Origin: Candidatus Nomurabacteria bacterium
Lineage (GTDB): Bacteria; Patescibacteriota; Minisyncoccia; Phycocordibacterales; UBA5272
Length of the DNA: 64,000 bases
Reading direction: 5' to 3'
Assembly (NCBI GenBank): GCA_028286645.1
Contig: JAQBRF010000002.1
Location: forward strand, 58,518-122,517
Part shown: one piece after another, positions 4,614 to 46,020 of the stretch
How the letters are laid out: every line of letters begins with the position of its first letter
How positions within the stretch are numbered: the first letter of the stretch is position 1
Position numbers and translations under genes: made by a program
The notes under the pieces: generated by a model
What the model saw: the letters and a program-made list of their open reading frames with translations, nothing else
The model's database searches: none
What the model was told of the DNA's origin: nothing

Positions 4614-4700
4614 GTGGTGTAGTGGACTCCATTATTTACTTAGGAGAAAGATGGGTTAGAAAATAAGCAGTACCCTTGTAGTAGGTTATAGGAACTGAGA
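4614..4700. repeat. Intergenic repeat element B (~85 bp) copy
   Basis: gtggtgtagtggactccattatttacttaggag...agaaaataagcagtacccttgtagtaggttataggaactgagat; near-identical copies at 7244..7326 and 9449..9528, truncated or degenerate copies at 3878..3937, 3541..3585 and 5359..5440; always directly 3' of a minus-strand gene stop. Confidence 0.8.
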
Positions 4701-4707
4701 TGGGGGT

Positions 4708-5322
4708 TTACCAAGGTCTCGGGCGTTCCCTTTTAGCCCGCGCTTCAATTTGTGGAGCCTCTTTGATTAAATCTTCTTCGGATTTACCGGACACTTCTAG
4801 ATACCGCTGCTTTCTCCAGTATGTTGCCCATTCCATCAACCAGTCGACCTCCTTAACAAACCGATCTTCAGAAAGCGTTGCGTCCTTGAAATCTTTCCTA
4901 AGAACTAGTTGAGGCATACCCGAGTTTAAAGGTTGTTCATTTATATAGAAATAACCCTCGCCAAGCGTAGAAGGCTCACGATCTCCCGCCCTTTTAACTT
5001 CATCAAAAAATTCTTTTCTTTTAATCATGAGGTGGGCATCATTTACTACAAGACCAAACACTGAAAACTGTCCATCGTTTGCGGAGTAACTGAACTCGGC
5101 AGCTCCGAGTATCACTTTGAAATCCTGTTGGTCTTCTTTAAGAGAGACGTTATCTCCTATTTTCTTCCCATAGGCGGTTACATATTTTTTGGCTTCTTCG
5201 TTTGTCATGTGTTTTGGTACATTATTAGATGTTTGTATATTAAATCCTTTTTTATAATACATAAAGCCTGCACCTATAAGGAGCAATATGGCCACAATTA
5301 TTAAAGACTTTTTCATATTCAA
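4708..5322 (-). CDS. Secreted/anchored hypothetical protein, paralogue of 6467..7123
   Basis: N-terminal signal anchor; shared C-terminal ...EE(D/E)LIKEAP...R(P/K)xxW* with 6467..7123. Confidence 0.55.
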   Translation of the reverse strand: MNMKKSLIIVAILLLIGAGFMYYKKGFNIQTSNNVPKHMTNEEAKKYVTAYGKKIGDNVSLKEDQQDFKVILGAAEFSYSANDGQFSVFGLVVNDAHLMIKRKEFFDEVKRAGDREPSTLGEGYFYINEQPLNSGMPQLVLRKDFKDATLSEDRFVKEVDWLMEWATYWRKQRYLEVSGKSEEDLIKEAPQIEARAKRERPRPW

Positions 5323-5441
5323 TCAAAGTATATCAGTAATTAACCGCATTCTTCACTGTGGTTAGTGGGCTATAAAGAACTTCTTTATTGCTTAGGAACA
5401 TCCTCTCATCACCCTATATTTTATGTAGGACATAAACAGGA

Positions 5442-5672
5442 TTAGAACTCATGAAAAAGAGAATAGAGTAAATACCCTGCTGAAACAATTCCTACAATTA
5501 CCGCAATTATCATCAAACTTATATCCCAAATTCCATTACAAGGAAATGAATTTAAAGAGTTTTGGGTGCAGGGTACTACCTTATCGATTATATGTCTTGA
5601 GAAGAGCGCCCTATTACCGATGATAAATAAAATAGCTGAAACTACAAGACTAATAATTGATATTTTTATCAT
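5442..5672 (-). CDS. Small membrane protein
   Basis: 76 aa, two hydrophobic helices, own upstream AAGTATATC box. Confidence 0.4.
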   Translation of the reverse strand: MIKISIISLVVSAILFIIGNRALFSRHIIDKVVPCTQNSLNSFPCNGIWDISLMIIAVIVGIVSAGYLLYSLFHEF

Positions 5673-7769: not shown

Positions 7770-7836
7770 CCCTAAAGTATACCCTACTCCTCTCCACACT
7801 ATATTAGTGTGCTATGTAGAGATTACACGAATTGCA

Positions 7837-8367: not shown

Positions 8368-8474
8368 TGCATAAGTATACCCTACTCCCCACCACCCTAT
8401 TGAAATACATATAAGGATGTGTGCCCTTCGGACTACCTTAGGACAATCAATTTTCAACTCAGACGATATTAGGA

Positions 8475-10145: not shown

Positions 10146-10190
10146 CTCCAAAGTATACCCTACCCTGCTCCACACTATGTTAAAAGACTC
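10146..10190 (-). promoter_or_regulatory. Conserved promoter/leader module A (gene-sense ATATAGTGTGGAGCAGGGTAGGGTATACTTT-N4-ATG)
   Basis: Same ~45-bp sequence found upstream of the genes starting at 794, 3788, 6359, 7123, 7769, 8367, 9413 and 10145; TATACT ends 7-9 nt before the ATG. Confidence 0.6.
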
Positions 10191-11733: not shown

Positions 11734-12074
11734 ATTTGCATTTTGGAAGCAAAAAGCCCCCAAGGTTGACGACCTTTCGGCCGCCCATATCCGTTTCCAG
11801 ATACGTCTCACTACAAACAAACTCTTGGAACCGTAATTACTCAATGTGATAATAGTTTTGCAACTACTTGTTATGGAAACCATGGGGGCCTACCGGGAAT
11901 TTCTTCGACAAGTATTTGTTCGCCGCCGCTCACAAATCTCGCCTCCCGCCCCTCGCCCATTTTCCTTGCTAGAAAAATATGGCTGTGGTCTTCGAATCCG
12001 GACGTAAACAAAGCAGTTTGTTTACTTAGGCACACCAAATACAAAAACGGCCATAAAGACCGTTTTTGTATTTG

Positions 12075-12179
12075 GTGTGCCTAGTCGAGACACCGGTCGA
12101 ACTTCTCGCGAAATTGCAGAGATGTTTTTAAGCACTATCCCGCAGGCAACGTCTCGACGTCCTGATGTCCCTACTACAC
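12075..12179. repeat. ~105-bp direct repeat copy 1 (begins with tRNA-His 3'-end-like gtgtgcctagtcgagacaccggtcgaac)
   Basis: About 80% identical to 13223..13327; preceded by a perfect 20-bp-stem hairpin 12029..12081. Confidence 0.75.
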
Positions 12180-12560
12180 AGCAGAATCTTCGTCTGCAGT
12201 AGTTCGCTTCTGTCTTTTTTCTTCTTGATAGTCATTCCAGAGAAGCAGCAGAAAGTCACTCATAGCTGCGTCAGCTTGACGAAGTTCTTCTTCGGTGAAG
12301 TCCGGGAAGATCTCGCGAATCACTGGTGCGACTTCCATATCTTCGGGTAGGCGTTTGGGGTGCATGGGGCGATGGGAGGCTCTGAGGTTATTAGGCAGAG
12401 CTAACGCTATCCATAGCACGATATTGACAAATGTCCAAAATATGATTGGATATAAGTAAGTAGTTCTTGTCCTCAGTATTTGGTTGCGGAATGAAGTTCG
12501 AGACTTAAGCAGTTCGCGAATTTCTCCCCTAACCAAGACGAGGTCAGCATGCAGATCCAC
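12174..12560 (-). CDS. Hypothetical membrane protein in GC-rich insert (alternative to or overlapping the 12549 ORF start)
   Basis: One predicted TM helix; long ORFs in GC-rich DNA can be spurious. Confidence 0.3.
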   Translation of the reverse strand: MDLHADLVLVRGEIRELLKSRTSFRNQILRTRTTYLYPIIFWTFVNIVLWIALALPNNLRASHRPMHPKRLPEDMEVAPVIREIFPDFTEEELRQADAAMSDFLLLLWNDYQEEKRQKRTTADEDSAV

Positions 12561-13013
12561 GAGAAGATTGGAAAGTTGGGTGCATCGGTATTCCTGATGT
12601 CAATGATCCCGAACACTCCCGAAGGGAACGAAGCGATCGACACTATGCTTGCGAAAGCGGGCGCGCAGATGCTGCTGTGGTGCAACGCGCTTTACTATCC
12701 GACGATGGAGTTCGCCGAGTGGGTGCATCAACAAGAAACTCGCATTGAGGAGCGTTTCAAGGCAAACCCTGCTTTGGATCGCATGAAAAAAGAGGCGGAT
12801 TTCCTTCTCGAAGCCCACTGGGATCAGGAGTTAGAAGAAGCTCGCGAGGAATACGCAAACGATCCCGAGCATCGAGCTATGGTGGCCCGAATCAACGAGA
12901 AGATCGAGGAGCGGCTCGCCGCGGATCCGGAACTACGTCGGGAGTTTGAGGAAGGACTGGCAGCACATATCGCTCTTGTCTGCGAACAAAGCGCCCGCAA
13001 ACGGATTCACTAA
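12549..13013 (+). CDS. Hypothetical Ala/Glu-rich protein in GC-rich insert
   Basis: GC3-rich codon usage unlike the surrounding genome; SD-like ACGAGGT 5 nt before the ATG. Confidence 0.4.
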   Translation: MQIHEKIGKLGASVFLMSMIPNTPEGNEAIDTMLAKAGAQMLLWCNALYYPTMEFAEWVHQQETRIEERFKANPALDRMKKEADFLLEAHWDQELEEAREEYANDPEHRAMVARINEKIEERLAADPELRREFEEGLAAHIALVCEQSARKRIH

Positions 13014-13222
13014 CATTCTCCTTCTGGGAAAACACTTCAGGCGGCCCTCCCGGGCTGCCTTTTTACTTTTGATGCCAAATAGAGAAAGTATCCGTCAAGA
13101 ACACACTTTGCAAAAGTGTACAAGGCTGGTCGAGGAGAAAACGCTTACTCTGTAAGTCTCATTTGCAATGCAACAAATTACTTTCTCCGCAAGACTACAA
13201 AAATTGCCAAATTTTCCTATTA

Positions 13223-13327
13223 GTGTGCCTACTCGGGACACCGGTCGAACTTTGAGTGAAATTGCCGAGTTGTTTTTAAGCGTCATTCCGCAGCCAACAT
13301 CTCCACGTCCTAACATCTCTACTCACT
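13223..13327. repeat. ~105-bp direct repeat copy 2
   Basis: gtgtgcctactcgggacaccggtcgaactttgagtgaaattgccgagttgtttttaagcgtcattccgcagccaacatctccacgtcctaacatctctactcac. Confidence 0.75.
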
Positions 13328-13875
13328 AACAGCGGCCCTTCAAAATTGACAGCTTGAGTATGCGTGTTAGGCTGAAATTGGATATCGCTTTACATATCCT
13401 CATAGTCGAGCCCCATGAACTCCGCAGCCCGGAGTGCCAACGACCTCCTATGACCGCCATTGCGGCTTAGCCCCTTCCGAATCGGAGGGGCATTTTTGTT
13501 TCTCAGAGTTGCCTCTCGGTCCCAATATGTAACCGTTACGCGCTTTGAGGTTTTGTCTATGCTAAATGTGGTCGATATTATTAGCCAAGACCAAGAACAC
13601 ATATGGAAACACTAGGAGACCGCTTCCTTGCGCCAACCGCTCGGGAGAACCTCTTTGAGTCAATAGACTATCTTCACGAATCGATTCGTAATGCACGCGA
13701 ATGCGTGTACGACATCGAGCGAAGCATAGACGCTTCGCTTGATGAGATTCGAGGAAAGAAGCCTGAGGCAGCTCAAGAGAAGAAGTAGGGTGTAGCTAAT
13801 ACACCCCTCTCACGAAGACGAATATCGTGGGGGACATGGATTTAAGTTGCAGAAACGCAATGCGATTTGAATCTG

Positions 13876-13949
13876 TGTGCCTACCGGGATTCGAACCCGG
13901 ACTGAGGGCTCCACAAGCCCGCGTGCTAACCATTACACTATAGGCACCA
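13876..13949 (-). tRNA. tRNA-His (GTG)
   Basis: Reverse complement GGTGCCTATAGTGTAATGGTTAGCAC...cuuGUGgag...GGTTCGAATCCCGGTAGGCACA; cloverleaf with G-1; no encoded CCA. Confidence 0.85.
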
Positions 13950-14035: not shown

Positions 14036-14119
14036 GCCCAGGTGGCGAAACTGGTAGACGCACTACCTTGAGGTGGTAGCGCTGGCAACGGCATGGAGGT
14101 TCAAGTCCTCTCCTGGGCA
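14036..14119 (+). tRNA. tRNA-Leu (GAG), long variable arm
   Basis: GCCCAGGTGGCGAAACTGGTAGACGC...cttGAGgt...GGTTCAAGTCCTCTCCTGGGCA. Confidence 0.85.
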
Positions 14120-14385
14120 CAATTTTTTAAACGGCTTCGGCCGTTTTAAATTTGGGCGACACCTGCGTGTCGTACGTAAGGACTTCCGGAGTATGATCCC
14201 GTTTTCTTAGATTATAATCAATCTCTTGAAATCGCAGTCCTTTAGGATTTTGCGAGCACGCAAAACGACGAGGAGTGGCCGGCGAACTTTTCTGCTCGGC
14301 GGAGAGAAAAGATTTGTCGAAAAGGCCCTCCTCTACACAAGTCAACTTTTAAATTAAAATCTCGATCTTTCGATCGAGATTTTAA

Positions 14386-36706: not shown

Positions 36707-39052
36707 TTATAACGCTTGTAGATTCGCCCCAATAGTCCTAGACACCTTTAATGGTAAATCTGAGAGCTTTCTTTTTGATAAAACCTTTTCTAAAACTTTT
36801 ACCAATTCATCCGCTACATCTTCACAAATATGCTTATCAATTTCAAAAACTAGTTCATCATGAATCTGCATGACGAGCTTTACCTTATCCCCTAATTTCT
36901 TTTCCTCCACATATTCATTTGCATCAATCATGGCGAGCTTAAGAATGTCCGCCGCCGTCCCCTGCATCGGAGCATTAATGGCGATCCTTTCTCCTTGCGC
37001 ACGAAGAAAGGGAAGAGGGCTTTTAAGCAGCGGAACTTCTCGTCTTCTGCCAAGCAAAGTTTCTGTGTAGCCCAACTTAAAAGTAGATGCTTTTACTTCT
37101 TCTAGATAATCCATAAGGCGTGAGAAAGTTTTCTTATATTGATCATAAAACTCCTGGGCTTCTTTTCTTTCCACTTTCATATTTTCTTTTAAAGCCGTAA
37201 CTCCCATGCCATAAAGTATCCCGAAGTTAATCGCCTTTGCCTTTCTTCTCATATCATCCGTTACTTCGCTTTCTTTTACACCAAAGACTCTAGCCGCAGT
37301 TCCAGCATGTACATCAGTTTTACTCTTAAATATTTCTACGAGATTTTTGTCTCCCGAAAGGATAGCGGCGGCACGCAAATCTATTTGTGAGTAATCACAT
37401 GAAAGCAAAACATTCCCCTTGCTCGCCACGAAAGACTCTCGCACCTTTTGGCCTAGTTCGCTTTTAATGGGAAGATTCTGCAGATTCGGATCTTCACAGG
37501 CAAAGCGCCCGGTGCTTGCTCCTGTTTGAATAAAATGCGCATGAATCTTTCCGTCTGCCTTAACATATTGAGGAAGCGTATCAATATAGGTAGAAAGAAG
37601 TTTAGTCATTTCTCTATATTCAAATATCATAGGCACGACAATGTGCTCATCTTTTATCTTCTCAAGCTCTTTAGCATTAGTACTTGCAGCCCCTGACTTA
37701 GTCTTCTTGATCTTTGTTCCTAAATTTAATTTCTCAAATAAAATCACGCCAAGCTGCTTCGGAGAAGAAATATTAAACTCTTCTCCCACACACTTGAATA
37801 TCTTTTTTTCTAATTCCTTTACTCGTATGTGGAGCTCTATACTTAATTTATTTAACTTTACTACGTCAAGGGCAATGCCATTTTTTTCCATTTCGCGAAG
37901 CCTGTACATAATAGGCTTTTCTACTCCGACAAAAAGATCCCACAACTTTTCTTTCTGGAGTTCAGCTTCCAAAAAGCTTTTCATTTCTTCCGCTGTTTTC
38001 TTTCCGGTAATAATCTGCATATCTTCCATGGTTGGATTCGTAGATTCACTATGAAGAAGATTCGTCATGATTTTTAATTCTTCAAGCATTTCCCCTTCTA
38101 TTTCTTCTATTGGCTCTGTTACTTCTGCAAGCGCATCCTTTACTCCTATCTTCTGCAGTCTTCCTCGGAGCGATCTAAATTCATATAAGTCGCACATCTT
38201 TTGATAATTTTCAATGCTTAGACTTTCAAGCCAAGAGTTTTCCGGTTCTTGGTATTTAATCGGCACATCTCTTATTATCGTTGCGAGGGTCTTAGAGAAT
38301 AGCGCCTCTTCTTCCCCTTCTTCAAGAAGCTTCACCACACGTTCTTTAAATCCATCATCAAGGAGCCTTTGCCGATTCTTTTTTAAAACTTTATAAATAT
38401 CTTCTATCTTCCCGTATTTCTTTATTAATTCCGTTGCGGTTTTATCCCCGATTCCAGAAATACCGATGATATTATCAGACGGATCACCAGCAAGCCCTTT
38501 ATAGTCAGGAATCATCGCAGGACCAAATCCATATCTTTCTTTTACCCCTTCTTCATTAAAGAGAGCCGTTTCGTTTCCTTTTCTTAATGTATAAACCGTC
38601 ACGCATTCTCTGTCGATTAACTGAAATGTATCCATGTCGCCAGACGCGATAATAATTCTTGTATTCTTCTGCGTCTTTAATTGCTCTGCGATTGTCCCAA
38701 GCAAATCATCAGCCTCGAATCCTTCACAAATATAAACTGGAATAGAAAGCGCTTCGCAAAGTTTATATGCTTCTTGAATCTGACTAATTAGCGCGTCATC
38801 TGTTTTTGCCCTGCCTTGCTTGTATCCCTCGTAGCTTGTATGGCGAAATGTCGGTTTAGGCAAGTCAAAACAAGCCGCGATGTAATCAGGTTTAATATCT
38901 TCATAGATTTTCAAAACCATGGTGATGAATCCATAAAGAGCACCAGTCGGCCTTCCATCTCGGGTGCTAAATCCTGCCATTGCATGAAATCCGCGATGAA
39001 GTATCGCATGGGCATCAAGTAAAACTATTGTTTTTTTAGTGCTTTTCTTCAT
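36707..39052 (-). CDS. polA: DNA polymerase I (5'-3' exonuclease plus polymerase domains)
   Basis: N-terminal LLDAHAILHRGFHA FEN domain; RRKAKAINFGILYGMG and HDE motifs of the family-A polymerase. Confidence 0.9.
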   Translation of the reverse strand: MKKSTKKTIVLLDAHAILHRGFHAMAGFSTRDGRPTGALYGFITMVLKIYEDIKPDYIAACFDLPKPTFRHTSYEGYKQGRAKTDDALISQIQEAYKLCEALSIPVYICEGFEADDLLGTIAEQLKTQKNTRIIIASGDMDTFQLIDRECVTVYTLRKGNETALFNEEGVKERYGFGPAMIPDYKGLAGDPSDNIIGISGIGDKTATELIKKYGKIEDIYKVLKKNRQRLLDDGFKERVVKLLEEGEEEALFSKTLATIIRDVPIKYQEPENSWLESLSIENYQKMCDLYEFRSLRGRLQKIGVKDALAEVTEPIEEIEGEMLEELKIMTNLLHSESTNPTMEDMQIITGKKTAEEMKSFLEAELQKEKLWDLFVGVEKPIMYRLREMEKNGIALDVVKLNKLSIELHIRVKELEKKIFKCVGEEFNISSPKQLGVILFEKLNLGTKIKKTKSGAASTNAKELEKIKDEHIVVPMIFEYREMTKLLSTYIDTLPQYVKADGKIHAHFIQTGASTGRFACEDPNLQNLPIKSELGQKVRESFVASKGNVLLSCDYSQIDLRAAAILSGDKNLVEIFKSKTDVHAGTAARVFGVKESEVTDDMRRKAKAINFGILYGMGVTALKENMKVERKEAQEFYDQYKKTFSRLMDYLEEVKASTFKLGYTETLLGRRREVPLLKSPLPFLRAQGERIAINAPMQGTAADILKLAMIDANEYVEEKKLGDKVKLVMQIHDELVFEIDKHICEDVADELVKVLEKVLSKRKLSDLPLKVSRTIGANLQAL

Positions 39053-39501
39053 ATATCTTTTTCAAATGTTAAAACTACTTCACGAGTATCATCATCAATT
39101 AAATTAAAAACAAGCTCAATATCTCCTTTTACATACTGCATTTTATCCGGCCACTCAATGCTAAGAAGATTCCCATCAGTTTCCAAATCTTCTGACAGTC
39201 TCAATACTTTCGCTTCACTTGGATGATTAAATCTATATGCATCGACATGGATTAATTTTTTATGAATTGGATTTTGAGTAAGATATTCTTTCTTTAAAAT
39301 AAAAGTAGGACTATGGATATCGTCTTTTTCCACTCCTAATATTTCTCCCAACTCTTTCGTAAAGGTAGTTTTCCCTGCCCCCATCTCCCCTTGTAAAAGG
39401 ATCACCTTCGCTCCTTTTTTATCTACATGAGATAAGAGGGTTACGACTCTTTCTGCAAGAGCCGGCATATCTTCCACCCGCACAACGTGAGTCTCTGTCA
39501 T
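39049..39501 (-). CDS. tsaE: tRNA t6A biosynthesis protein TsaE
   Basis: GEMGAGKTTFTKELG ... SPTFIL; start trimmed to MTETHVV. Confidence 0.8.
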   Translation of the reverse strand: MTETHVVRVEDMPALAERVVTLLSHVDKKGAKVILLQGEMGAGKTTFTKELGEILGVEKDDIHSPTFILKKEYLTQNPIHKKLIHVDAYRFNHPSEAKVLRLSEDLETDGNLLSIEWPDKMQYVKGDIELVFNLIDDDTREVVLTFEKDI

Positions 39502-39637
39502 AAAGAACAGTCTACAGTTTTCAGTCGGCAGTTTCCAGTAGCAAAACAGCCCCATCGGGGCTGTTTTGCTTTTGCTAATGACTATTGACCATTAACTATT
39601 TGACTATATTCTGGCTCACATAAGGCGCTAAGCTTTT

Positions 39638-41755
39638 TTACACGAGTGACTTTTTGTCATCTTTGTAAGAAGCATATACGCTCTTAGCAAGAATGAAGAT
39701 AATGAATACTATCGCTATTAAAGCTAACCATTCAATGAGAGTGTCTGGAAGGAAACTTAATCCGCTTCCTCCTCCGATAACTTTCTTCGCTCCTGTATCT
39801 GTCGTAGCTGAAGTTGCTGGAGTCGCAATTGATCCTACGACATATGCTGTTACTTCGTCTTGAGTGTTTGACCCAGGGACTGTGTAGTTAACATATGATG
39901 TTGTAACAATTGATTTTCCTATCGGAGCATTTTTTGTAACCTTTCCTGTCCAAGTAAGTGTTCCTGTACTTCCGGCTTCTATTGAATCTAGATTAAGCGT
40001 TAATGTATGTGTCGCTATATCGTATGATCCGGCTGAAGTTGAAGTGAATTCAATTTCTTGCGGAATTGTTACTTTAATGATAACTCCGTTTACTTTTACG
40101 TCTGAAAGATTCTTATAAGTTAGTTTATATGTAACCGTTGATTCAGAACTTAGATTTCCAGATACTTTTTCTAATTGTAGAGAAACAAGTTTCTCTCCAT
40201 TTTGAAGCATTGTTGCAGAACTTTGGCTTGTTGTAGTTACGATTGAACCATCCACACAAACCACTTCGTTCTTTTTCACAACTGGCTTTTTCGCGATAGT
40301 CTTTGTTACTGTTACTGGTTTTACATATGTTACGGCCTTGCTCTTAGTTACGAAGCTTACGATTTCACCCTTAACTAGTCCATACTGATTTTGCATAACT
40401 GCTCTACAGTAGTATTTAGTTGCTGGCTTAAGGTTTGCTAGAACGTTTGAGAAGTTTACAGTTGAAGCTGATCCGATCTGAGCTGACGCTGTTGTGCGTC
40501 CTAGATTGGCAGTTTCACCGTATTCAAACCATCCAGTTGACTGTGCGCCATTAGCGATTAATCCTATTCCATTACATCTTGCTGAGTTGATAGTAACTTC
40601 TGTTACAACGCTTGTTACGACGTTATTGAACTTAACTACTGGAGGAGGAATTACTACTGGAGCTTGTGGACACTGTTGGTATACAGGAATACTTGTTCCG
40701 TTTGGACAGAACTTGAACTGTTGAGCACAAGTCTGTGTTGCAGGAATCCGCGATCCATCCCAACATGTCTGGTAAGTAATAACTGGAGGGTTAATGATTT
40801 GCTGACAAACTCCATTTACAAAGTTTGTATTTGAGGGACACTGAGTAACTGTAGTTACTGGAAGTGTGGTTGTACGTACACAAGATCCATTTATAGGAGC
40901 CTGTCCATCAGCACAAATTGTATTTGTAACTACTGGAATTGTATTTGTACGAGTACATGATCCATTGACTGGAAAACTTCCATCTGAACAACGAGTAGTC
41001 GTTACAGTGGGAATAGTAGTAATGATCGGAGTAGTTGGAGTAGTAATTACAGTAGGAGTGGTTATAATAGACGGAGTTGTATAACCTGTCCATGAAGTTG
41101 TCGGATAAACAACTGATGGAGTTGAAGTATAAACTGATCCATATGAAGTTCCGTATCCTGTAGAACCGTATGCTGTGGTTCCATATCCTATAGCTCCGTA
41201 AGTTGTGGGGTATGAAGAATAACTAGGAGTATAAACACCGCTCGGCATATAAACCCCGTTAGGATAACTAGTTGTTGTATTCCATGTTCCTATATCATAG
41301 GATCCAGTAGGAGATACAGTAGTGGAATTCCATGTTCCAGAGTCATACGAAGGCACGTTGGTATTCCAACTTCCAGTGTCATACGAAGGCACGTTAGTGT
41401 TCCAAGAACCTGTATCATAACTAGGCACGTTGGTATTCCAACTTCCTGTATCGTATGATGGTACGTTGGTATTCCAACTTCCAGTGTCATACGAAGGCAC
41501 GTTGGTATTCCAACTTCCTGTATCGTATGATGGTACGTTGGTATTCCAACTTCCTGTATCGTATGATGGTACGTTGGTATTCCAACTTCCTGTATCGTAT
41601 GATGGTACGTTGGTATTCCAACTTCCAGTGTCATACGAAGGCACGTTAGTGTTCCAAGAACCTGTATCATCCATACCGTCCGCAAATGCGAAAAGTGTAG
41701 ATTGCTGAATAGCGATAACTAGAAACAGTGTGATAATTTTTTTTGTTGTTTTCAT
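39638..41755 (-). CDS. Large cell-surface protein with ~10 tandem 12-aa repeats (DTGSWNTNVPSY), Thr/Pro-rich region and C-terminal TM anchor
   Basis: Signal peptide MKTTKKIITLFLVIAI; repeats visible at protein and DNA level; C-terminal hydrophobic helix plus KDDKKSLV. Confidence 0.7.
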   Translation of the reverse strand: MKTTKKIITLFLVIAIQQSTLFAFADGMDDTGSWNTNVPSYDTGSWNTNVPSYDTGSWNTNVPSYDTGSWNTNVPSYDTGSWNTNVPSYDTGSWNTNVPSYDTGSWNTNVPSYDTGSWNTNVPSYDTGSWNTNVPSYDSGTWNSTTVSPTGSYDIGTWNTTTSYPNGVYMPSGVYTPSYSSYPTTYGAIGYGTTAYGSTGYGTSYGSVYTSTPSVVYPTTSWTGYTTPSIITTPTVITTPTTPIITTIPTVTTTRCSDGSFPVNGSCTRTNTIPVVTNTICADGQAPINGSCVRTTTLPVTTVTQCPSNTNFVNGVCQQIINPPVITYQTCWDGSRIPATQTCAQQFKFCPNGTSIPVYQQCPQAPVVIPPPVVKFNNVVTSVVTEVTINSARCNGIGLIANGAQSTGWFEYGETANLGRTTASAQIGSASTVNFSNVLANLKPATKYYCRAVMQNQYGLVKGEIVSFVTKSKAVTYVKPVTVTKTIAKKPVVKKNEVVCVDGSIVTTTSQSSATMLQNGEKLVSLQLEKVSGNLSSESTVTYKLTYKNLSDVKVNGVIIKVTIPQEIEFTSTSAGSYDIATHTLTLNLDSIEAGSTGTLTWTGKVTKNAPIGKSIVTTSYVNYTVPGSNTQDEVTAYVVGSIATPATSATTDTGAKKVIGGGSGLSFLPDTLIEWLALIAIVFIIFILAKSVYASYKDDKKSLV
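41290..41655. repeat. 36-bp in-frame tandem repeat array (~10 units) inside the surface protein gene
   Basis: ggtacgttggtattccaacttcctgtatcgtatgat repeated with few substitutions. Confidence 0.85.
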
Positions 41756-41891
41756 ACCTTTATATAATTTATTAGGTGTAAGTATTATATCACGAAAGAA
41801 ATAAAAAGTCAAGGGGCAAAAGAAAACCGCCCTGGGGGGCGGTCTGGGGGTCGAACCTCGGGAGAGGCTCAGAGGGGTGTGGGCGCTTCGG

Positions 41892-42692
41892 TTACTTTAC
41901 CGCGCCGATGTGCTTGTAGGTGCTCTTGTCGTCGATGCCTTGCTTGGCGGCGACGCGGAACGACCACTGTTGCTCCGTCTCACCGTTGTTCGGCGCGACG
42001 ATCTCCACATCCGAGCAGTTCGCGGGTTTGCCGCTGATCTGCTTGGTTGCGTAGCAGTGCATCGGGCTTTGCGCCGACGAGTTCGGGTGGTACCAGCCCC
42101 AGAAGGTGCTGGCGTTCGCCGGAAACGACGGAAGCGGAGCCGAGCTCGAAGCAGTCCTTGCGGGCTGCACTGCCGGCGGAGATGCCGGACGATTACCGTG
42201 GGTCACGGTGGGGCGTTTGCACCCGAGAACCGCGGCACAGATGGCGTCAGACGTCATCTGTTGCTGCGGAGTGGAAGCCTTGAGCGCGAGCGCGTTCACG
42301 CTTCCTTGAAGGCCTTCAAGTGAGGCCTTGGTCGCGTCGGCGGTTTTCACCGCGGCTTCCGCTTGTTTTTTCGCGGTCGTCGCGTTGCTGTCCACGGCCT
42401 TGAACTCGTCGCTCGCGAGGGCCAGTGTTTTGGCTTTCTCGGTGACGCCTGCGACGGCGTTGTCGAAATTGCTATTGCTGGGCGTCGTGAACGCCAGGAG
42501 GATCGCGAGGATCATTGCGCCTACGCCGGCCGCGATCGCCAGATTCGCGCGAGTGTGGTCCGGGGAGGGAGCCAGATCTGAGGCGGCGTAGATCTTGCCG
42601 TCGTGGCCTTGAACGAAGACGCGCGTGTCTCCGGCCGCAACCATCTTAGTCACTTCTGCGTCGGTAAAGCCTTTCGGTTGGCGATTAGCCAT
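41892..42692 (-). CDS. GC-rich Ala-rich membrane-anchored protein with conserved Cys-containing C-terminal domain
   Basis: GC3-rich codons; SD GAGGTG; N-terminal cytoplasmic segment then TM helix (LAIAAGVGAMILAILLAF); C-terminal W.W...PM.C...K.I...C..V.AP..GET..QW shared with 42881..43963. Confidence 0.55.
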   Translation of the reverse strand: MANRQPKGFTDAEVTKMVAAGDTRVFVQGHDGKIYAASDLAPSPDHTRANLAIAAGVGAMILAILLAFTTPSNSNFDNAVAGVTEKAKTLALASDEFKAVDSNATTAKKQAEAAVKTADATKASLEGLQGSVNALALKASTPQQQMTSDAICAAVLGCKRPTVTHGNRPASPPAVQPARTASSSAPLPSFPANASTFWGWYHPNSSAQSPMHCYATKQISGKPANCSDVEIVAPNNGETEQQWSFRVAAKQGIDDKSTYKHIGAVK

Positions 42693-42761
42693 GGTTCACC
42701 TCTTAGGTTATGTGGTGGAACTCTGATAAGCGTTTGGAAATCCATTCGCTCGTTAATATGT

Positions 42762-42789
42762 AGTATACACTATTAAAAAGAATTGTCAA
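42762..42789 (-). promoter_or_regulatory. Consensus sigma70-type promoter TTGACA-N17-TGtATACT for 41892..42692
   Basis: Gene sense: cTTGACAattctttttaatagtgTATACT. Confidence 0.6.
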
Positions 42790-42880
42790 GTGATATATGA
42801 AATAAAAATAGTATAAAAAAGCCCTCCACTGTGGAGGGCTTCGACCAGGATTGGTCTGATGTGCGGAGGATCCGCTGGCG

Positions 42881-43963
42881 TTAGAGCTTTTCGGCTCTGA
42901 GCGCCCACTGATCACGCGTTTCGCCGGCGACCGGCGCGAGAACTTTCATCTCCGAGCAGAACGGCGGGTTGGGCGCATTGATCAGCTTTTCGACGACACA
43001 TGCCATCGGGTTCTGGGAGGTTGCCTTTCCCGGCTTCCATTTCCAGAGATCGACACCGTTTTCCGCCGGACGCGCCGCCGGAACGACAGTTCGCGTTACG
43101 CTCGCCGAGGAGGTTTGCGTTGCGGTCGATCCGCTTTGTGTCGTGACCACAGATGACGAGGTGGCAACTGCGCCTTCGACGAGCTCGGGTTTTACCGTAA
43201 GCCTGTCGCAGGTCGGCTTGTCTTTCACATATGCGACGACCCCTTGGGTGGGGAAGCTGCACGGGCTGAGACTTGCCGGCACGGTTTGGCGTTGCACCGT
43301 CGTGCGTTGCTGCGAAAACTCGCTGCCACCCAGCTGAACGGGCATATTGCCACCGTTTTCGCTGATGTTCGCGGGAAACGTCGCTGCGGGACGCATCGGG
43401 ATCGAGGTCTGAATGATCCGACCTTCGTCGCCATCGTTGACGATATACGGATCGCACCCGTAGGTGAGACCGTATGCAACTCCTACAGCGCCGCCGATTT
43501 TCGCACCGTCGACGAACTTGTGACGGGTGAATTTGGCGACCACTCCTCCGAAGAGGGCGGCTGCGGCACCGTCGACGAGCCCCGTCATTCCGCGATCCGA
43601 AAGCGAGCAGCGAACGCGTCGTCCGCCCATGTTCGCGGTAAACGGCTGACCGTACTGCACACCTTGCGGCATGAAGTAAGTCTGATTGCCGTACGCGAAC
43701 ACCGGCTGGTTCCCGATCATCGGAACAGCGTAGGATTGACCTGCGGAGCACGCGAGGTGTCCTTGCGGGCAATTCCACTGGCCGTTGACGAGAATGTTGG
43801 GTGCCGAACCTTGCTGTTGTCCCGTCATGGTCGGAACGACCATTTGGGCTTGCGTCCCGAAGGACGCGGCGGCGAGGGCAACTGCGAAAAGCGTGTTGAG
43901 CTTGTTCATGCGGTTCTCCTGAATTGACTTGGTACGGGGTCTTGTAGACGGACCAAAGGTCAA
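42881..43963 (-). CDS. GC-rich secreted protein, paralogous C-terminal domain to 41892..42692
   Basis: Signal peptide MNKLNTLFAVALAAASFGTQAQ; SD AGGAG; same C-terminal domain. Confidence 0.55.
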   Translation of the reverse strand: MTFGPSTRPRTKSIQENRMNKLNTLFAVALAAASFGTQAQMVVPTMTGQQQGSAPNILVNGQWNCPQGHLACSAGQSYAVPMIGNQPVFAYGNQTYFMPQGVQYGQPFTANMGGRRVRCSLSDRGMTGLVDGAAAALFGGVVAKFTRHKFVDGAKIGGAVGVAYGLTYGCDPYIVNDGDEGRIIQTSIPMRPAATFPANISENGGNMPVQLGGSEFSQQRTTVQRQTVPASLSPCSFPTQGVVAYVKDKPTCDRLTVKPELVEGAVATSSSVVTTQSGSTATQTSSASVTRTVVPAARPAENGVDLWKWKPGKATSQNPMACVVEKLINAPNPPFCSEMKVLAPVAGETRDQWALRAEKL

Positions 43964-43982
43964 TCTATCAAGGTATGAGTAC

Positions 43983-44010
43983 AGTATACACTATTCACAG
44001 GATTTGTCAA
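43983..44010 (-). promoter_or_regulatory. Consensus sigma70-type promoter TTGACA-N17-TATACT for 42881..43963
   Basis: Gene sense: cTTGACAaatcctgtgaatagtgTATACT. Confidence 0.6.
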
Positions 44011-44319: not shown

Positions 44320-46020
44320 ATGGCTATTACATTTGATGACGCGGTACAAAATCATGAGTTGGAAGACTTACGCAAAAACGAAGAGGAGGAATTAGTAAAA
44401 ATTCTTTCAGATAAATACGGACTTCCGTATATTGACCTGCGCGGGCTGGCTCCGGAACCAGACGCTATGCAAGTAATAAAAGAAGAAGACGCCAGAGAAG
44501 TGGGGCTCGCGCCTTTTAAAATAGTTGGCAGGAAACTTTATATAGCCACAATCTCCCCGGGAAATCCAAGAATGGAGGAGCTTCTTCGTCCACTAGAAAC
44601 CAGAGGAACTGAATTAATTTTATTTCTTTGTTCTCACGCATCACTTAACCATGTGCTTTCTAGATATGTGGATTTAAATAAAGGATCAAAAGTAGAAAGC
44701 GGAATGCTTGAGCTTACGAAAGAAAAAATCCACGGGCTCATGGAAAAGTTTAATGACGTTGATGAATTAAAAAAAACCTTTGACGAAATATCACATTCCC
44801 AGGTTCTATATAAAACCACAAGAATTATAGAAGTCATAATCGCCGGAGCGCTTAAATTCGACGCGAGCGATATACATATAGAACCAGAAGAAGACAAGGT
44901 AAGATTGAGATATAGATTAAATGGAAATTTGATCGACATAACTTTCTTTGATTACGAGCTGTTAAAAAACATCACGAGCAGATTAAAGCTTTTGTCCGGT
45001 CTTAAGCTCTCAACATCTGCTAACGCACAAGATGGAAGATTTAGCATCGACTTAGATGAGGTAGAGGTGGAAGTGCGCGTGTCTGTAATACCTTCAAACT
45101 ATGGAGAAGGATTTGTGATGAGATTGCTTGACCCAAGGCACTCTGTGACAGATTTAAACAACATCGCATTTTCTCCAAAACTCCGCGCTCTTGTAGAATA
45201 TTCGCTTAGCAAGCCAAACGGAGTTATTCTTACAACCGGCCCGACAGGGTCCGGTAAGACTACCACTTTATATGCGTTTTTACACAAGATGTATAACCCT
45301 GAATTAAAAGTAATTACAATTGAGGACCCGGTAGAATACCATCTGGAAGGAATTACTCAAACTCAAGTAGAGGAAGAAAAAGGATATACATTCGTTGCTG
45401 GATTACGAGCCGCACTTCGTCAAGATCCTGACATAATAATGGTGGGAGAAATCCGAGACACAGACACAGCAAAAGTCGCGATCAATGCTGCGCTCACGGG
45501 GCATTTAGTTTTCTCAACACTTCACACCAATACCGCCGCTGGAACTATACCGCGATTAATCGACTTAGGAGTAAACCCAAAAGTTATCGCTTCTGCCCTA
45601 TCGCTCGCCCTTGCTCAAAGACTCGTAAGAAGCCTTTGCAATGAATGCAAGCAAGAATATGAAAGCAGTGAAAAAGAGTCCCGTGTAATTACGAATGTTT
45701 TAGGAGAAATGAAAATAGCAGGAAAAGAGGAGTCCATGATGGGACACACCCCTCTTGTTACTTATAAATTATTTAAACCTGTGGGCTGCAGCAAATGTGG
45801 AGGAACTGGATATTCTACTCGAATAGGAATATTTGAAGCGATTAGCATGAATGCGGATATTGAAAAGATTTTAATCACGAATCCTAGTGAAAGAGAAATA
45901 CGGGAAGTTTCTAAAAACCAAGGAATCCCAACGCTTAAGGAGGATGGTATAATTAAGATGCTCGAGGGACTTACTTCGTTTGAGGAATTGGGCAAGACAA
46001 TTGATCTTTTCGGAGAATAA
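44320..46020 (+). CDS. pilB: Type IV pilus assembly ATPase PilB / GspE-family secretion ATPase
   Basis: Walker A GPTGSGKTT; Asp and His boxes; tetracysteine CNEC...CSKCGG; terminator aaaccc-tttc-gggttt at 46068..46086. Confidence 0.9.
   Translation: MAITFDDAVQNHELEDLRKNEEEELVKILSDKYGLPYIDLRGLAPEPDAMQVIKEEDAREVGLAPFKIVGRKLYIATISPGNPRMEELLRPLETRGTELILFLCSHASLNHVLSRYVDLNKGSKVESGMLELTKEKIHGLMEKFNDVDELKKTFDEISHSQVLYKTTRIIEVIIAGALKFDASDIHIEPEEDKVRLRYRLNGNLIDITFFDYELLKNITSRLKLLSGLKLSTSANAQDGRFSIDLDEVEVEVRVSVIPSNYGEGFVMRLLDPRHSVTDLNNIAFSPKLRALVEYSLSKPNGVILTTGPTGSGKTTTLYAFLHKMYNPELKVITIEDPVEYHLEGITQTQVEEEKGYTFVAGLRAALRQDPDIIMVGEIRDTDTAKVAINAALTGHLVFSTLHTNTAAGTIPRLIDLGVNPKVIASALSLALAQRLVRSLCNECKQEYESSEKESRVITNVLGEMKIAGKEESMMGHTPLVTYKLFKPVGCSKCGGTGYSTRIGIFEAISMNADIEKILITNPSEREIREVSKNQGIPTLKEDGIIKMLEGLTSFEELGKTIDLFGE

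Follow-up and report, generated by a model that had tools for sequence, protein, structure and literature searches.

What do two adjacent and unusually GC-rich genes of a low-GC bacterium encode, and why do their otherwise different products end in the same small domain? This question is raised by a locus in a 64,000-nucleotide stretch of DNA from Candidatus Nomurabacteria bacterium (hereafter the window), in which an earlier note had described two tandem, Ala-rich envelope proteins with a common Cys-containing C-terminus. We call these genes A and B, and C the large surface-protein gene that follows them. The products of A and B are identical to the hypothetical proteins JWN37_139 and JWN37_138, respectively, encoded on a 251,735-bp contig of a Candidatus Nomurabacteria metagenome-assembled genome (MAG) assigned to the Paceibacteria, within the candidate phyla radiation (CPR). 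With moderate confidence, we propose that A, B and C form a three-gene surface module, in which A and B are GC-rich and variable cassettes and the shared end domain is a putative recognition module of a surface complex.

A small two-cysteine domain at the end of A and B

By alignment and profile search, the common C-terminus of A and B is a genuine, previously unannotated small domain family. BLASTP with compositional adjustment returned one significant high-scoring segment pair, between residues 193-246 of B and 284-338 of A (E=1e-10; 20/55 positions identical, 31/55 positive), and the Smith-Waterman score of the two proteins (108) stands at z=19 relative to 2000 shuffles (23.6 ± 4.4). The earlier note had left room for a resemblance due to Ala/Pro low complexity only; given both the shuffle score and the composition-adjusted E-value, the similarity of these ~55 residues is real and not an effect of Ala/Pro composition. 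The shared motif reads W.W...(N/S)P..C...K.I...P..CS.....AP..GET..QW..R, and tblastn finds two copies of the domain in the window, those of A and B only.

An exhaustive HMMER search of 1.84 billion representatives, with a profile built from A and B, yielded 71 matches, among which ~64 are true members, 117-392 aa in length and always with the domain at their C-terminus. Long matches in several stretches proved to be PKD arrays and were discarded as false positives, only profile positions ~4-36 (W.W...NP) being matched. B and A themselves score 1.5e-44 and 3.1e-33 against the two-sequence profile, values that are circular as the profile was made from both, and the two proteins score 3.8e-29 and 6.5e-24 against the 64-member profile, which also includes them. 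The family can be defined as a ~55-aa C-terminal segment with W.W, two Cys ~12-14 residues apart and then GE[TS]xxxWxxR; across the 64-sequence alignment both Cys and one Trp are invariant, and another Trp, a Glu and an Arg nearly so. The modular nature that had been suspected is borne out by the presence of this segment behind at least three different N-terminal architectures: a signal peptide or lipobox followed by a glycine zipper, as in A; a cytoplasmic N-terminus with a transmembrane (TM) segment and a coiled-coil or Ala-rich stalk, as in B; and a lipoprotein with a coiled coil. The members are metagenomic singletons, mostly on short contigs, and word-index homology searches retrieved only A and B themselves, plus one member when a profile was used, the family as such emerging from the exhaustive HMMER search alone.

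Regarding known families, A and B gave nothing significant against Pfam, NCBIfam and PHROGs, and the 64 domain segments only spurious weak matches against Pfam; the domain has no match in the PDB by sequence profile, and Foldseek searches of the PDB and BFVD were also empty. Literature searches returned no description of the A-B-C module or of the domain in CPR bacteria. AlphaFold2 (AF2) models the B domain, from the 64-sequence alignment, with a core pLDDT (predicted local distance difference test) above 90, strands at C35 and C48 of the segment and a helix at 62-72. In the full-length model of A, which is too poor overall for a fold search (pLDDT 54.7), the domain part reaches ~85, with strands 290-293, 302-306 and 318-323 and a helix at 332-341. 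The modelled domain thus comprises three strands and a C-terminal helix, with the invariant Cys on neighbouring strands and the conserved Trp in the helix.

Both open reading frames (ORFs) lie where they had been placed, on the minus strand according to the ORF listing, and gene order and promoter scan agree with the tandem, co-oriented arrangement with separate promoters that had been proposed. For A, the gene stands but its start does not: the interval 42881-43963 includes a TTG extension inside the 5' untranslated region (UTR). The likely start is ATG 43909, which is preceded by an AGGAG Shine-Dalgarno sequence and from which the protein opens with the signal-peptide-like MNKLNTLFAVALAAASFGTQAQ, as A homologues do. 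The signal peptide of A is followed by a Gln/Gly-rich region, a glycine-zipper-like helical hairpin, a small two-Cys strand-strand-helix unit and the WxW two-Cys domain. AF2 places the hairpin helices at 103-128 and 132-150 (pLDDT ~65-70), and G139 and G143 are invariant in the 20-sequence A-type alignment, in which 9/20 homologues match glycine-zipper Pfam models (PF13441, best 2.3e-5). Window A has no other obvious anchor, and many A-type homologues carry lipoboxes. From these features, the A type is a predicted secreted protein or lipoprotein with a glycine zipper. It resembles the glycine-zipper families PF13441 (YMGG-like), PF13488 (Gly-zipper_Omp) and PF05433 (Rick_17kDa_Anti) in its GxxxG-rich helical hairpin; those families are typical of diderm outer-membrane lipoproteins, whereas here the hairpin is one part of a longer, multi-module secreted CPR protein.

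B has a cytoplasmic N-terminus, one TM segment at about residues 49-68, an Ala-rich ectodomain and the C-terminal WxW two-Cys domain. Since it lacks a cleavable signal peptide, has a single hydrophobic segment and shares a disulfide-type domain with the secreted A, its N-terminus is probably inside and its C-terminus outside, as in a type-II bitopic stalk protein. C comprises a signal peptide, nine copies of DTGSWNTNVPSY, Cys-containing modules, a DUF11/CLIPPER domain and a C-terminal TM anchor.

Site, transcription units and variability of the A-B-C locus

The genomic context was retrieved for 12 family members, on loci designated L001, L002 and so on. For 11 of these 12, it is the one seen in the window, RuvC-RuvB-PilB, then the divergent A, B and C, then TsaE-PolA. 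The A-B-C order recurs in L001, L002, L005-L008, L012, L013, L019, L022-L024 and on the P0011 contig, PilB is the neighbour in L002, L004-L008, L012, L013, L019, L023 and on the P0011 contig, and TsaE and PolA adjoin the genes in L001, L019, L022-L024 and on the P0011 contig. A C homologue follows B in every locus whose sequence reaches past B. The twelfth member, L014, has its A-B-C trio beside ribosomal-protein genes and not beside pilB; since the trio was relocated intact, it is the trio, and not pilB, that constitutes the unit. The same stretch of L014 (5443-10879) holds two extra unannotated genes among its ribosomal-protein genes, in the order L24, 360 aa (lipoprotein-like), L5, 417 aa, A, B, C. 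Four GTDB species representatives, found through their PilB (77-80% identical), have a GC-rich A/B island at the equivalent site, and a PilB-based metagenome scan gave no further locus of this clade. Judging from this synteny, A and B are two-thirds of a three-gene surface module kept at one site (PilB, A B C, TsaE-PolA) across a CPR clade. Some loci contain an additional small lipoprotein gene, A0, upstream of A (L001 319-708 and L005 9291-9713; 129-140 aa), with its own promoter; its product is Cys-rich in both, has a glycine zipper and a weak Rick_17kDa_Anti match in L001, and its gene has raised GC in L005.

The loci examined show neither integrase nor transposase genes in their gene tables and ORF lists, and no reverse transcriptase in their gene lists, a search aimed at the template and variable repeats (TR/VR) of a diversity-generating retroelement not having been made. 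A search of phage DNA gave no match, a scan of IMG/VR with the FWGWVHP subfamily gave none either, and INPHARED contained no relative; a phage origin of A and B was rejected on the strength of these empty phage and viral collections.

Each of A, B and C is, by its sequence signals, a self-contained transcription unit. The separate promoters claimed for A and B hold at the consensus level, both reading TTGACA-16-TATACT (11/12), and they share a 28-nt pattern, TTGACAA-N8-AATAGTGTATACT, that occurs twice in the window against 0.01 expected; an intrinsic-terminator-like hairpin follows each of the two genes. Throughout the loci examined, A, B and C are each individually equipped with a near-consensus promoter (CTTGACAAA-N12-TGTATACT), a leader of 70-120 nt, a Shine-Dalgarno sequence (AGGAG) and an intrinsic terminator. 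Moreover, the window contains 9 sites of the extended -10 element TAG(G/T)GTATACT against 0.76 expected, a strong over-representation that suggests a characteristic promoter type for this genome; the promoters are therefore the genome's own, in contrast to the foreign composition of the gene bodies. Examples of the -10 sites lie at 797-807, 7776-7786, 8374-8384 and 10152-10162. The 5'UTR of A genes contains a hairpin ~15 nt past the -10 box (43930-43982 in the window; also L004, L006, L007, L008 and L013), whose stem differs between loci (TAGATTGAC..GTCNGTCTA vs GGTTGGGA..TCCCGGCC). RNAalifold lends it weak support (3/8 pairs compensatory, total -2 kcal/mol), and an Rfam scan of the region returned nothing; it is possibly an mRNA-stabilising 5' stem-loop.

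The site is fixed and its A and B genes are hypervariable. Between loci, PilB is 68-88% and RuvB 80-92% identical, against 21-45% for A and B, over partial lengths only. The closest domain to that of window B is found in the A protein of L002 (59%), and the closest to that of window A in the A protein of L004 (57%): by sequence identity, the domain has moved between A and B scaffolds and its phylogeny is incongruent with theirs. In L005-L008, the C-termini of A and B consist of small two-Cys modules of other kinds, namely a 'CAWI' module common to both proteins in L005 (E 2e-11) and 'C...CxxW' types in L006-L008, with A/B sharing at E 0.002 in L007 and over a short stretch only, at E 0.009, in L006. 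A further end type, 'CxxGxxWxKLxWPGHP..CLP', is found on A in L013, L014, L019 and L024. Modules can also duplicate within a protein, as indicated by tandem copies: the L008 B-type protein of nzgw469 (4652-5575) has its end module twice (RSRCNLRNNGVIMETVF..ECDVWQ, AATCNFKLNGNVVAMTT..GCDAWQ), and L014 A has two copies of a 'WxxLDWxGHP..LCL' module.

The most direct trace of exchange comes from L023 and L024, whose DNA, taken from the -35 box of B onwards across B, C, tsaE and polA, is 98.7-99.8% identical, and whose A genes and A terminators are unrelated, differing in length and end module. The breakpoint coincides with GGGGCTTGAC, the -35 box of B, and A was therefore exchanged as a self-contained cassette; for A at least, this comparison shows replacement of whole cassettes by recombination. 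Elsewhere, hypervariable cassettes are enclosed by conserved flanks in the 'minimal mobile elements' of Neisseria and the S-layer cassette of Clostridioides difficile. Like them, the present locus combines a fixed site, conserved housekeeping flanks, unrelated surface-protein alleles in close relatives and recombinational replacement, and L023/L024 display the hallmarks of a minimal mobile element, with near-identical flanks, an unrelated insert and no mobility genes seen. Unlike them, each gene here forms a separate cassette, with a strong and conserved promoter as its boundary, and both the proteins and the domain are unrelated to theirs.

Variation in B is accompanied by variation in C, the end-module type of B and the N-terminal repeat type of C being paired in 13/13 loci where both are visible. 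B modules of the FWGW, LWKW or LWKF type occur with 'GSW' repeats in C (DTGSWNTNVPSY in the window) in six loci (window, L001, L002, L019, L022, L023/24), and IWLWH or IWYW modules with YDTGTTYP repeats in three (L012-L014). The four non-WxW loci, L005-L008, are paired with other C repeats, CAWI in L005 with GIYTSDPS and C..CxxW in L006-L008 with TYDYNY or YENVYSGSPT. Both the B module type and the C repeat type are common to the window and L002, though the flanks of these two are the most divergent (PilB 72%). As B is anchored N-terminally and C C-terminally, the co-varying parts are both membrane-distal. The C repeats of relatives are aromatic (NGSWDTGSY, YDTGTTYP, TYDYNY, GIYTSDPS, YENVYSGSPT), and even L023 and L024, otherwise near-identical, have different numbers of repeat copies. 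The features of the window locus are collected in Table 1.

Table 1. Genes, promoters, terminators and domains of the A-B-C locus and its flanks (window coordinates)
Feature	Coordinates	Strand	Evidence
Gene A promoter	43983..44010	-	TTGACA-16-TATACT, 11/12 consensus match; pattern TTGACAA-N8-AATAGTGTATACT
Gene A, 342 aa (JWN37_139)	42881..43909	-	ORF, alignment with 19 A-type homologues
Gene A, glycine-zipper-like helical hairpin, residues ~103-150	43460..43603	-	AF2, alignment
Gene A, C-terminal WxW two-Cys domain ('LWKW' subtype), residues 284-342	42884..43060	-	BLASTP, profile, AF2
Gene A intrinsic terminator	42818..42842	-	11-bp stem, then T run
Gene B promoter	42762..42789	-	11/12 consensus match, 28-nt pattern as in A promoter
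Gene B, 266 aa (JWN37_138)	41892..42692	-	ORF, protein identity
Gene B, C-terminal WxW two-Cys domain ('FWGW' subtype) and short tail, residues 193-266	41895..42116	-	BLASTP, profile, AF2
Gene B intrinsic terminator	41824..41845	-	Promoter/terminator scan
Gene C promoter	41784..41812	-	TTGACT-17-TATAAT with extended TG, 11/12
Gene C, large surface protein	39638..41755	-	ORF, start ATG 41755, PF01345 5e-8
36-nt tandem repeat, 9.1 copies, coding the DTGSWNTNVPSY array of gene C	41343..41670	-	TRF
Flank: PilB-type T2SSE ATPase, divergent from A	44320..46020	+	PF00437 1.6e-111
Flank: TsaE	39049..39555	-	Synteny with other loci, tblastn matches of window proteins
Flank: PolA, after TsaE	36707-39052		Synteny with other loci, tblastn matches

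The compositional excess of A and B

The GC-richness noticed from the outset is not only confirmed but extreme. A and B have a GC content of 0.60-0.62 and a GC content at third codon positions (GC3) of 0.69 and 0.76, respectively, against 0.335 ± 0.038, with a maximum of 0.413, for 36 reference genes of the window. In a window of ~0.39 GC, they form a sharply bounded island of 0.58-0.67 interrupted by AT-rich promoter regions (0.31), and their 3'UTRs are GC-rich as well (0.63 for A and 0.72 for B, over the 46 nt before the terminator). The excess is a property of the locus and not of this genome alone, as the GC3 of A and B exceeds that of the flanking housekeeping genes in 14/14 loci, by +0.10 to +0.45 (mean +0.235; Wilcoxon p=1.2e-4, which is only indicative as the loci are related). 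Codon choice follows the same trend: the relative synonymous codon usage of window A and B correlates at r=-0.33 with that of their own flanks, at r=+0.75 with that of the housekeeping genes of L013, the GC-richest relative, and at r=+0.73 to +0.77 with that of the cassettes of other genomes. Compared with the usual genomic islands, which are AT-richer, the A/B cassettes are systematically GC-richer than their genome.

Two ordinary causes were rejected. Amino-acid composition as the sole cause would, with host codon usage, give an expected GC of 0.48 and not the 0.60-0.62 observed. Translational selection is contradicted by the ribosomal-protein genes of L014 (GC3 0.28-0.29), by gene C of the window (0.26) and by the GC-rich 3'UTRs. 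Gene C, which is secreted and has a similar near-consensus promoter, has a GC3 of 0.17-0.26 where the background is low in GC (five cases) and of 0.36-0.46 where it is GC-richer (three cases); because neither gene C nor the ribosomal-protein genes are GC-rich, expression level and secretion do not explain the excess. The GC excess may most simply be explained by the recurrent import of cassettes from a sister lineage of higher GC content, with GC-biased gene conversion as a possible reinforcement, and gene conversion of this kind at a recombination hot spot, as the cause in itself, is a live alternative.

A second GC-richer patch is located elsewhere in the window (12027-13323, GC ~0.49-0.54), with ORFs at 12549-13013 (+ strand, 154 aa, GC3 0.62, no Pfam match) and 12174-12560 (- strand). 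A 104-nt direct repeat (12072-12175 / 13220-13323, 81% identical) encloses the patch, a perfect 24-nt inverted repeat (12027-12083) precedes it, and tRNA-His (13875-13947) and tRNA-Leu (14036-14120) genes are situated ~550 nt away; it looks like a small integrated foreign element.

Candidate roles of the A-B-C module

A recognition role for the end domain would follow from its position and its variability. The domain would occupy the free end of A and, in B, the tip farthest from the membrane, and would serve there in recognition or binding; the two proteins would often carry the same module because both must engage the same partner, and the most likely partner would be the N-terminal repeat array of C, which is also distal because C is anchored by its opposite end. 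A, B and C together would thus form a variable, outermost surface complex, the diversity of which may be a response to host cells or phages. We further put forward, as a tentative extension, that the A-B-C module is a host- or partner-specificity determinant of Nomurabacteria-like CPR bacteria, in which the C repeats are the docking site of the tip modules and co-evolve with them, and in which the GC3 excess reflects a locus-specific process and not a one-off transfer. Such a process could be a sustained one-way import from a GC-rich lineage or a strong GC-biased gene conversion at a recombination hot spot.

Several observations weigh against the recognition-complex reading. The co-variation of B and C could be simple linkage, the two genes being adjacent and co-inherited in L023/L024, and the loci in which it was seen are not phylogenetically independent. 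The end module of A differs from that of B in six loci (L008, L013, L014, L019, L023, L024), so that a shared module is frequent without being a rule. Window A itself gives no match at E<=1 to the glycine-zipper Pfam models. With respect to composition, the C repeats have a GC3 of 0.20-0.34 in eight low-GC backgrounds and ~0.45 in L012 and L013; they are not GC-rich, and B and C therefore do not have one common compositional history. In L013, the excess is still present although the flanks reach a GC3 of 0.60 (cassette 0.71). Among the sampled genomes the flank GC3 is at most 0.64, against 0.76 in the richest cassettes; no sampled genome is as GC-rich as these, and import from a known donor is thus unproven.

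The strongest competitor is that A and B are host-binding adhesins, which we regard as possible but doubtful. The domain would then bind a surface structure of a host bacterium, B being a tethered adhesin and A a secreted glycine-zipper protein that inserts into or coats a membrane; both would share a module because both must reach the same host receptor, and the co-variation with the C repeats would be linkage or a shared ligand only. The distal position of the domain on a stalk protein, its hypervariability and the swapping of modules are all in keeping with this, and the glycine-zipper region of the A type is a membrane-inserting kind of element. Moreover, the lineage belongs to the CPR, generally regarded as episymbionts (PMC6851277). 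Conversely, at ~55 aa the domain is tiny, no relation between it and the known folds of adhesins or lectins could be detected, and the perfect association of B modules with C repeats is explained less directly than by the docking proposed above.

The earlier note had offered binding or adhesion on the one hand and anchoring on the other, and anchoring is the weaker of the two. It would have the module attach A and B non-covalently to their own wall or S-layer, like SLH, LysM or WxL domains, a view that the C-terminal position, the conserved aromatics (W.W, W), the otherwise different secreted proteins that carry the module and the absence of another obvious anchor in window A could all suggest. 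The WxL domain binds peptidoglycan, is not known to have a conserved disulfide and occurs in clusters in Enterococcus and Lactobacillus; as in those clusters, a C-terminal Trp-containing module is found here on several clustered surface proteins of a monoderm bacterium. Unlike here, however, the WxL domain is ~3 times longer, and the WxL, SLH, LysM and CW_binding Pfam models match neither A, nor B, nor any of the 64 domain segments. Anchoring is also less likely because B is membrane-anchored at its opposite end, by an N-terminal TM segment, and many A-type homologues have lipoboxes, and because hypervariability of the module, and its replacement in close relatives by two-Cys modules unrelated to it, are unexpected of a domain that binds a conserved polymer. 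A hypervariable and exchangeable domain fits the recognition of a variable partner better than that of a conserved wall polymer, and we consider anchoring unlikely.

A polymorphic toxin or bacteriocin-like system appears improbable as well. A would be a glycine-zipper pore-former with a variable targeting or toxic end and B a membrane decoy or immunity protein, as might be read from the conserved N-terminal part and variable C-terminal end, from weak PT-VENN matches in 2/20 A homologues (E 4.5e-4), with a 'VNDG' motif directly after the glycine zipper, and from the existence of glycine-zipper bacteriocins such as Caulobacter CdzC/D. Yet the variable end measures only ~55 aa, a toxin domain cannot be recognised, a small immunity gene is missing downstream, and neither a secretion system nor a CdiB-like partner was found; window A has no PT-VENN or Gly-zipper match, and B shares the end module of A, although immunity proteins normally do not share the fold of the toxin.

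A spanin-like pair, or type IV pilus alignment proteins of the PilN/O/P kind meeting through their C-termini beside pilB, is very improbable. The topology does recall that of i-spanin/o-spanin and PilN/PilP: like Rz/Rz1, A and B associate an N-in coiled-coil membrane protein with a secreted protein or lipoprotein, with matching C-termini and conserved Cys; A adjoins the gene of the PilB ATPase, and residues 81-140 of B match an Rz-like PHROG (phrog_312, E 0.017). This match is nevertheless not significant and has no counterpart in A, and neither protein matches PF05137, PF04350 or PF04351. Unlike Rz/Rz1, the pair is chromosomal, syntenic across the clade and linked to a third gene, in a context of PilB, RuvB, RuvC, TsaE and PolA and not of phage or lysis genes, with no IMG/VR or INPHARED relative; CPR cells are regarded as monoderm, such machinery is not known to be hypervariable, and in L014 the trio stands away from pilB. 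Taken together, the non-significant family matches, the missing lysis context and the L014 arrangement largely refute this reading. Finally, that the GC-rich segment is an assembly chimera or a contaminant on a low-GC contig, as its abrupt change of ~20 GC points might suggest, is refuted by the recurrence of the arrangement in at least 13 independent assemblies from different studies, and each GC-rich ORF moreover lies between AT-rich promoters of the genome's own type.

Two published surface loci invite comparison with the A-B-C module. The hypervariable Ig-domain module of Thermococcales, which the excerpted parts of its description read as a conflict or self/non-self recognition system (PMC8416519), is likewise lineage-specific and syntenic and combines a large surface protein with variable partner genes; it differs in being archaeal and in having Ig domains and other partner genes, and those excerpts do not mention a compositional anomaly. 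In another CPR bacterium, a Gracilibacterium, a hypervariable PTD-repeat surface gene encodes an extracellular protein that varies within the population, according to the excerpted parts of that study (PMC6851277), and compares with the tandem array of gene C; it consists of a repeat array and not of exchangeable end domains, and paired genes or a GC anomaly are not reported in the same excerpts. With respect to known cassettes and to the Thermococcales module, what is new here is the domain family, the per-gene cassettes bounded by promoters and the locus-wide GC3 excess, unusual for islands.

Few Paceibacteria (Parcubacteria) have a known host or a known mechanism of attachment, and the locus described here is a compact and easily recognised fixed site that encodes the most variable, and probably highly expressed, surface proteins of the clade. 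It may thereby serve as a handle for strain typing, for studies of host and phage specificity and for recombinant binding experiments. As a small fold with a predicted disulfide, the domain constitutes a new family, and the GC3 excess, present in 14/14 loci and confined to two transcription units, would offer a clean natural case in which import can be separated from biased gene conversion.

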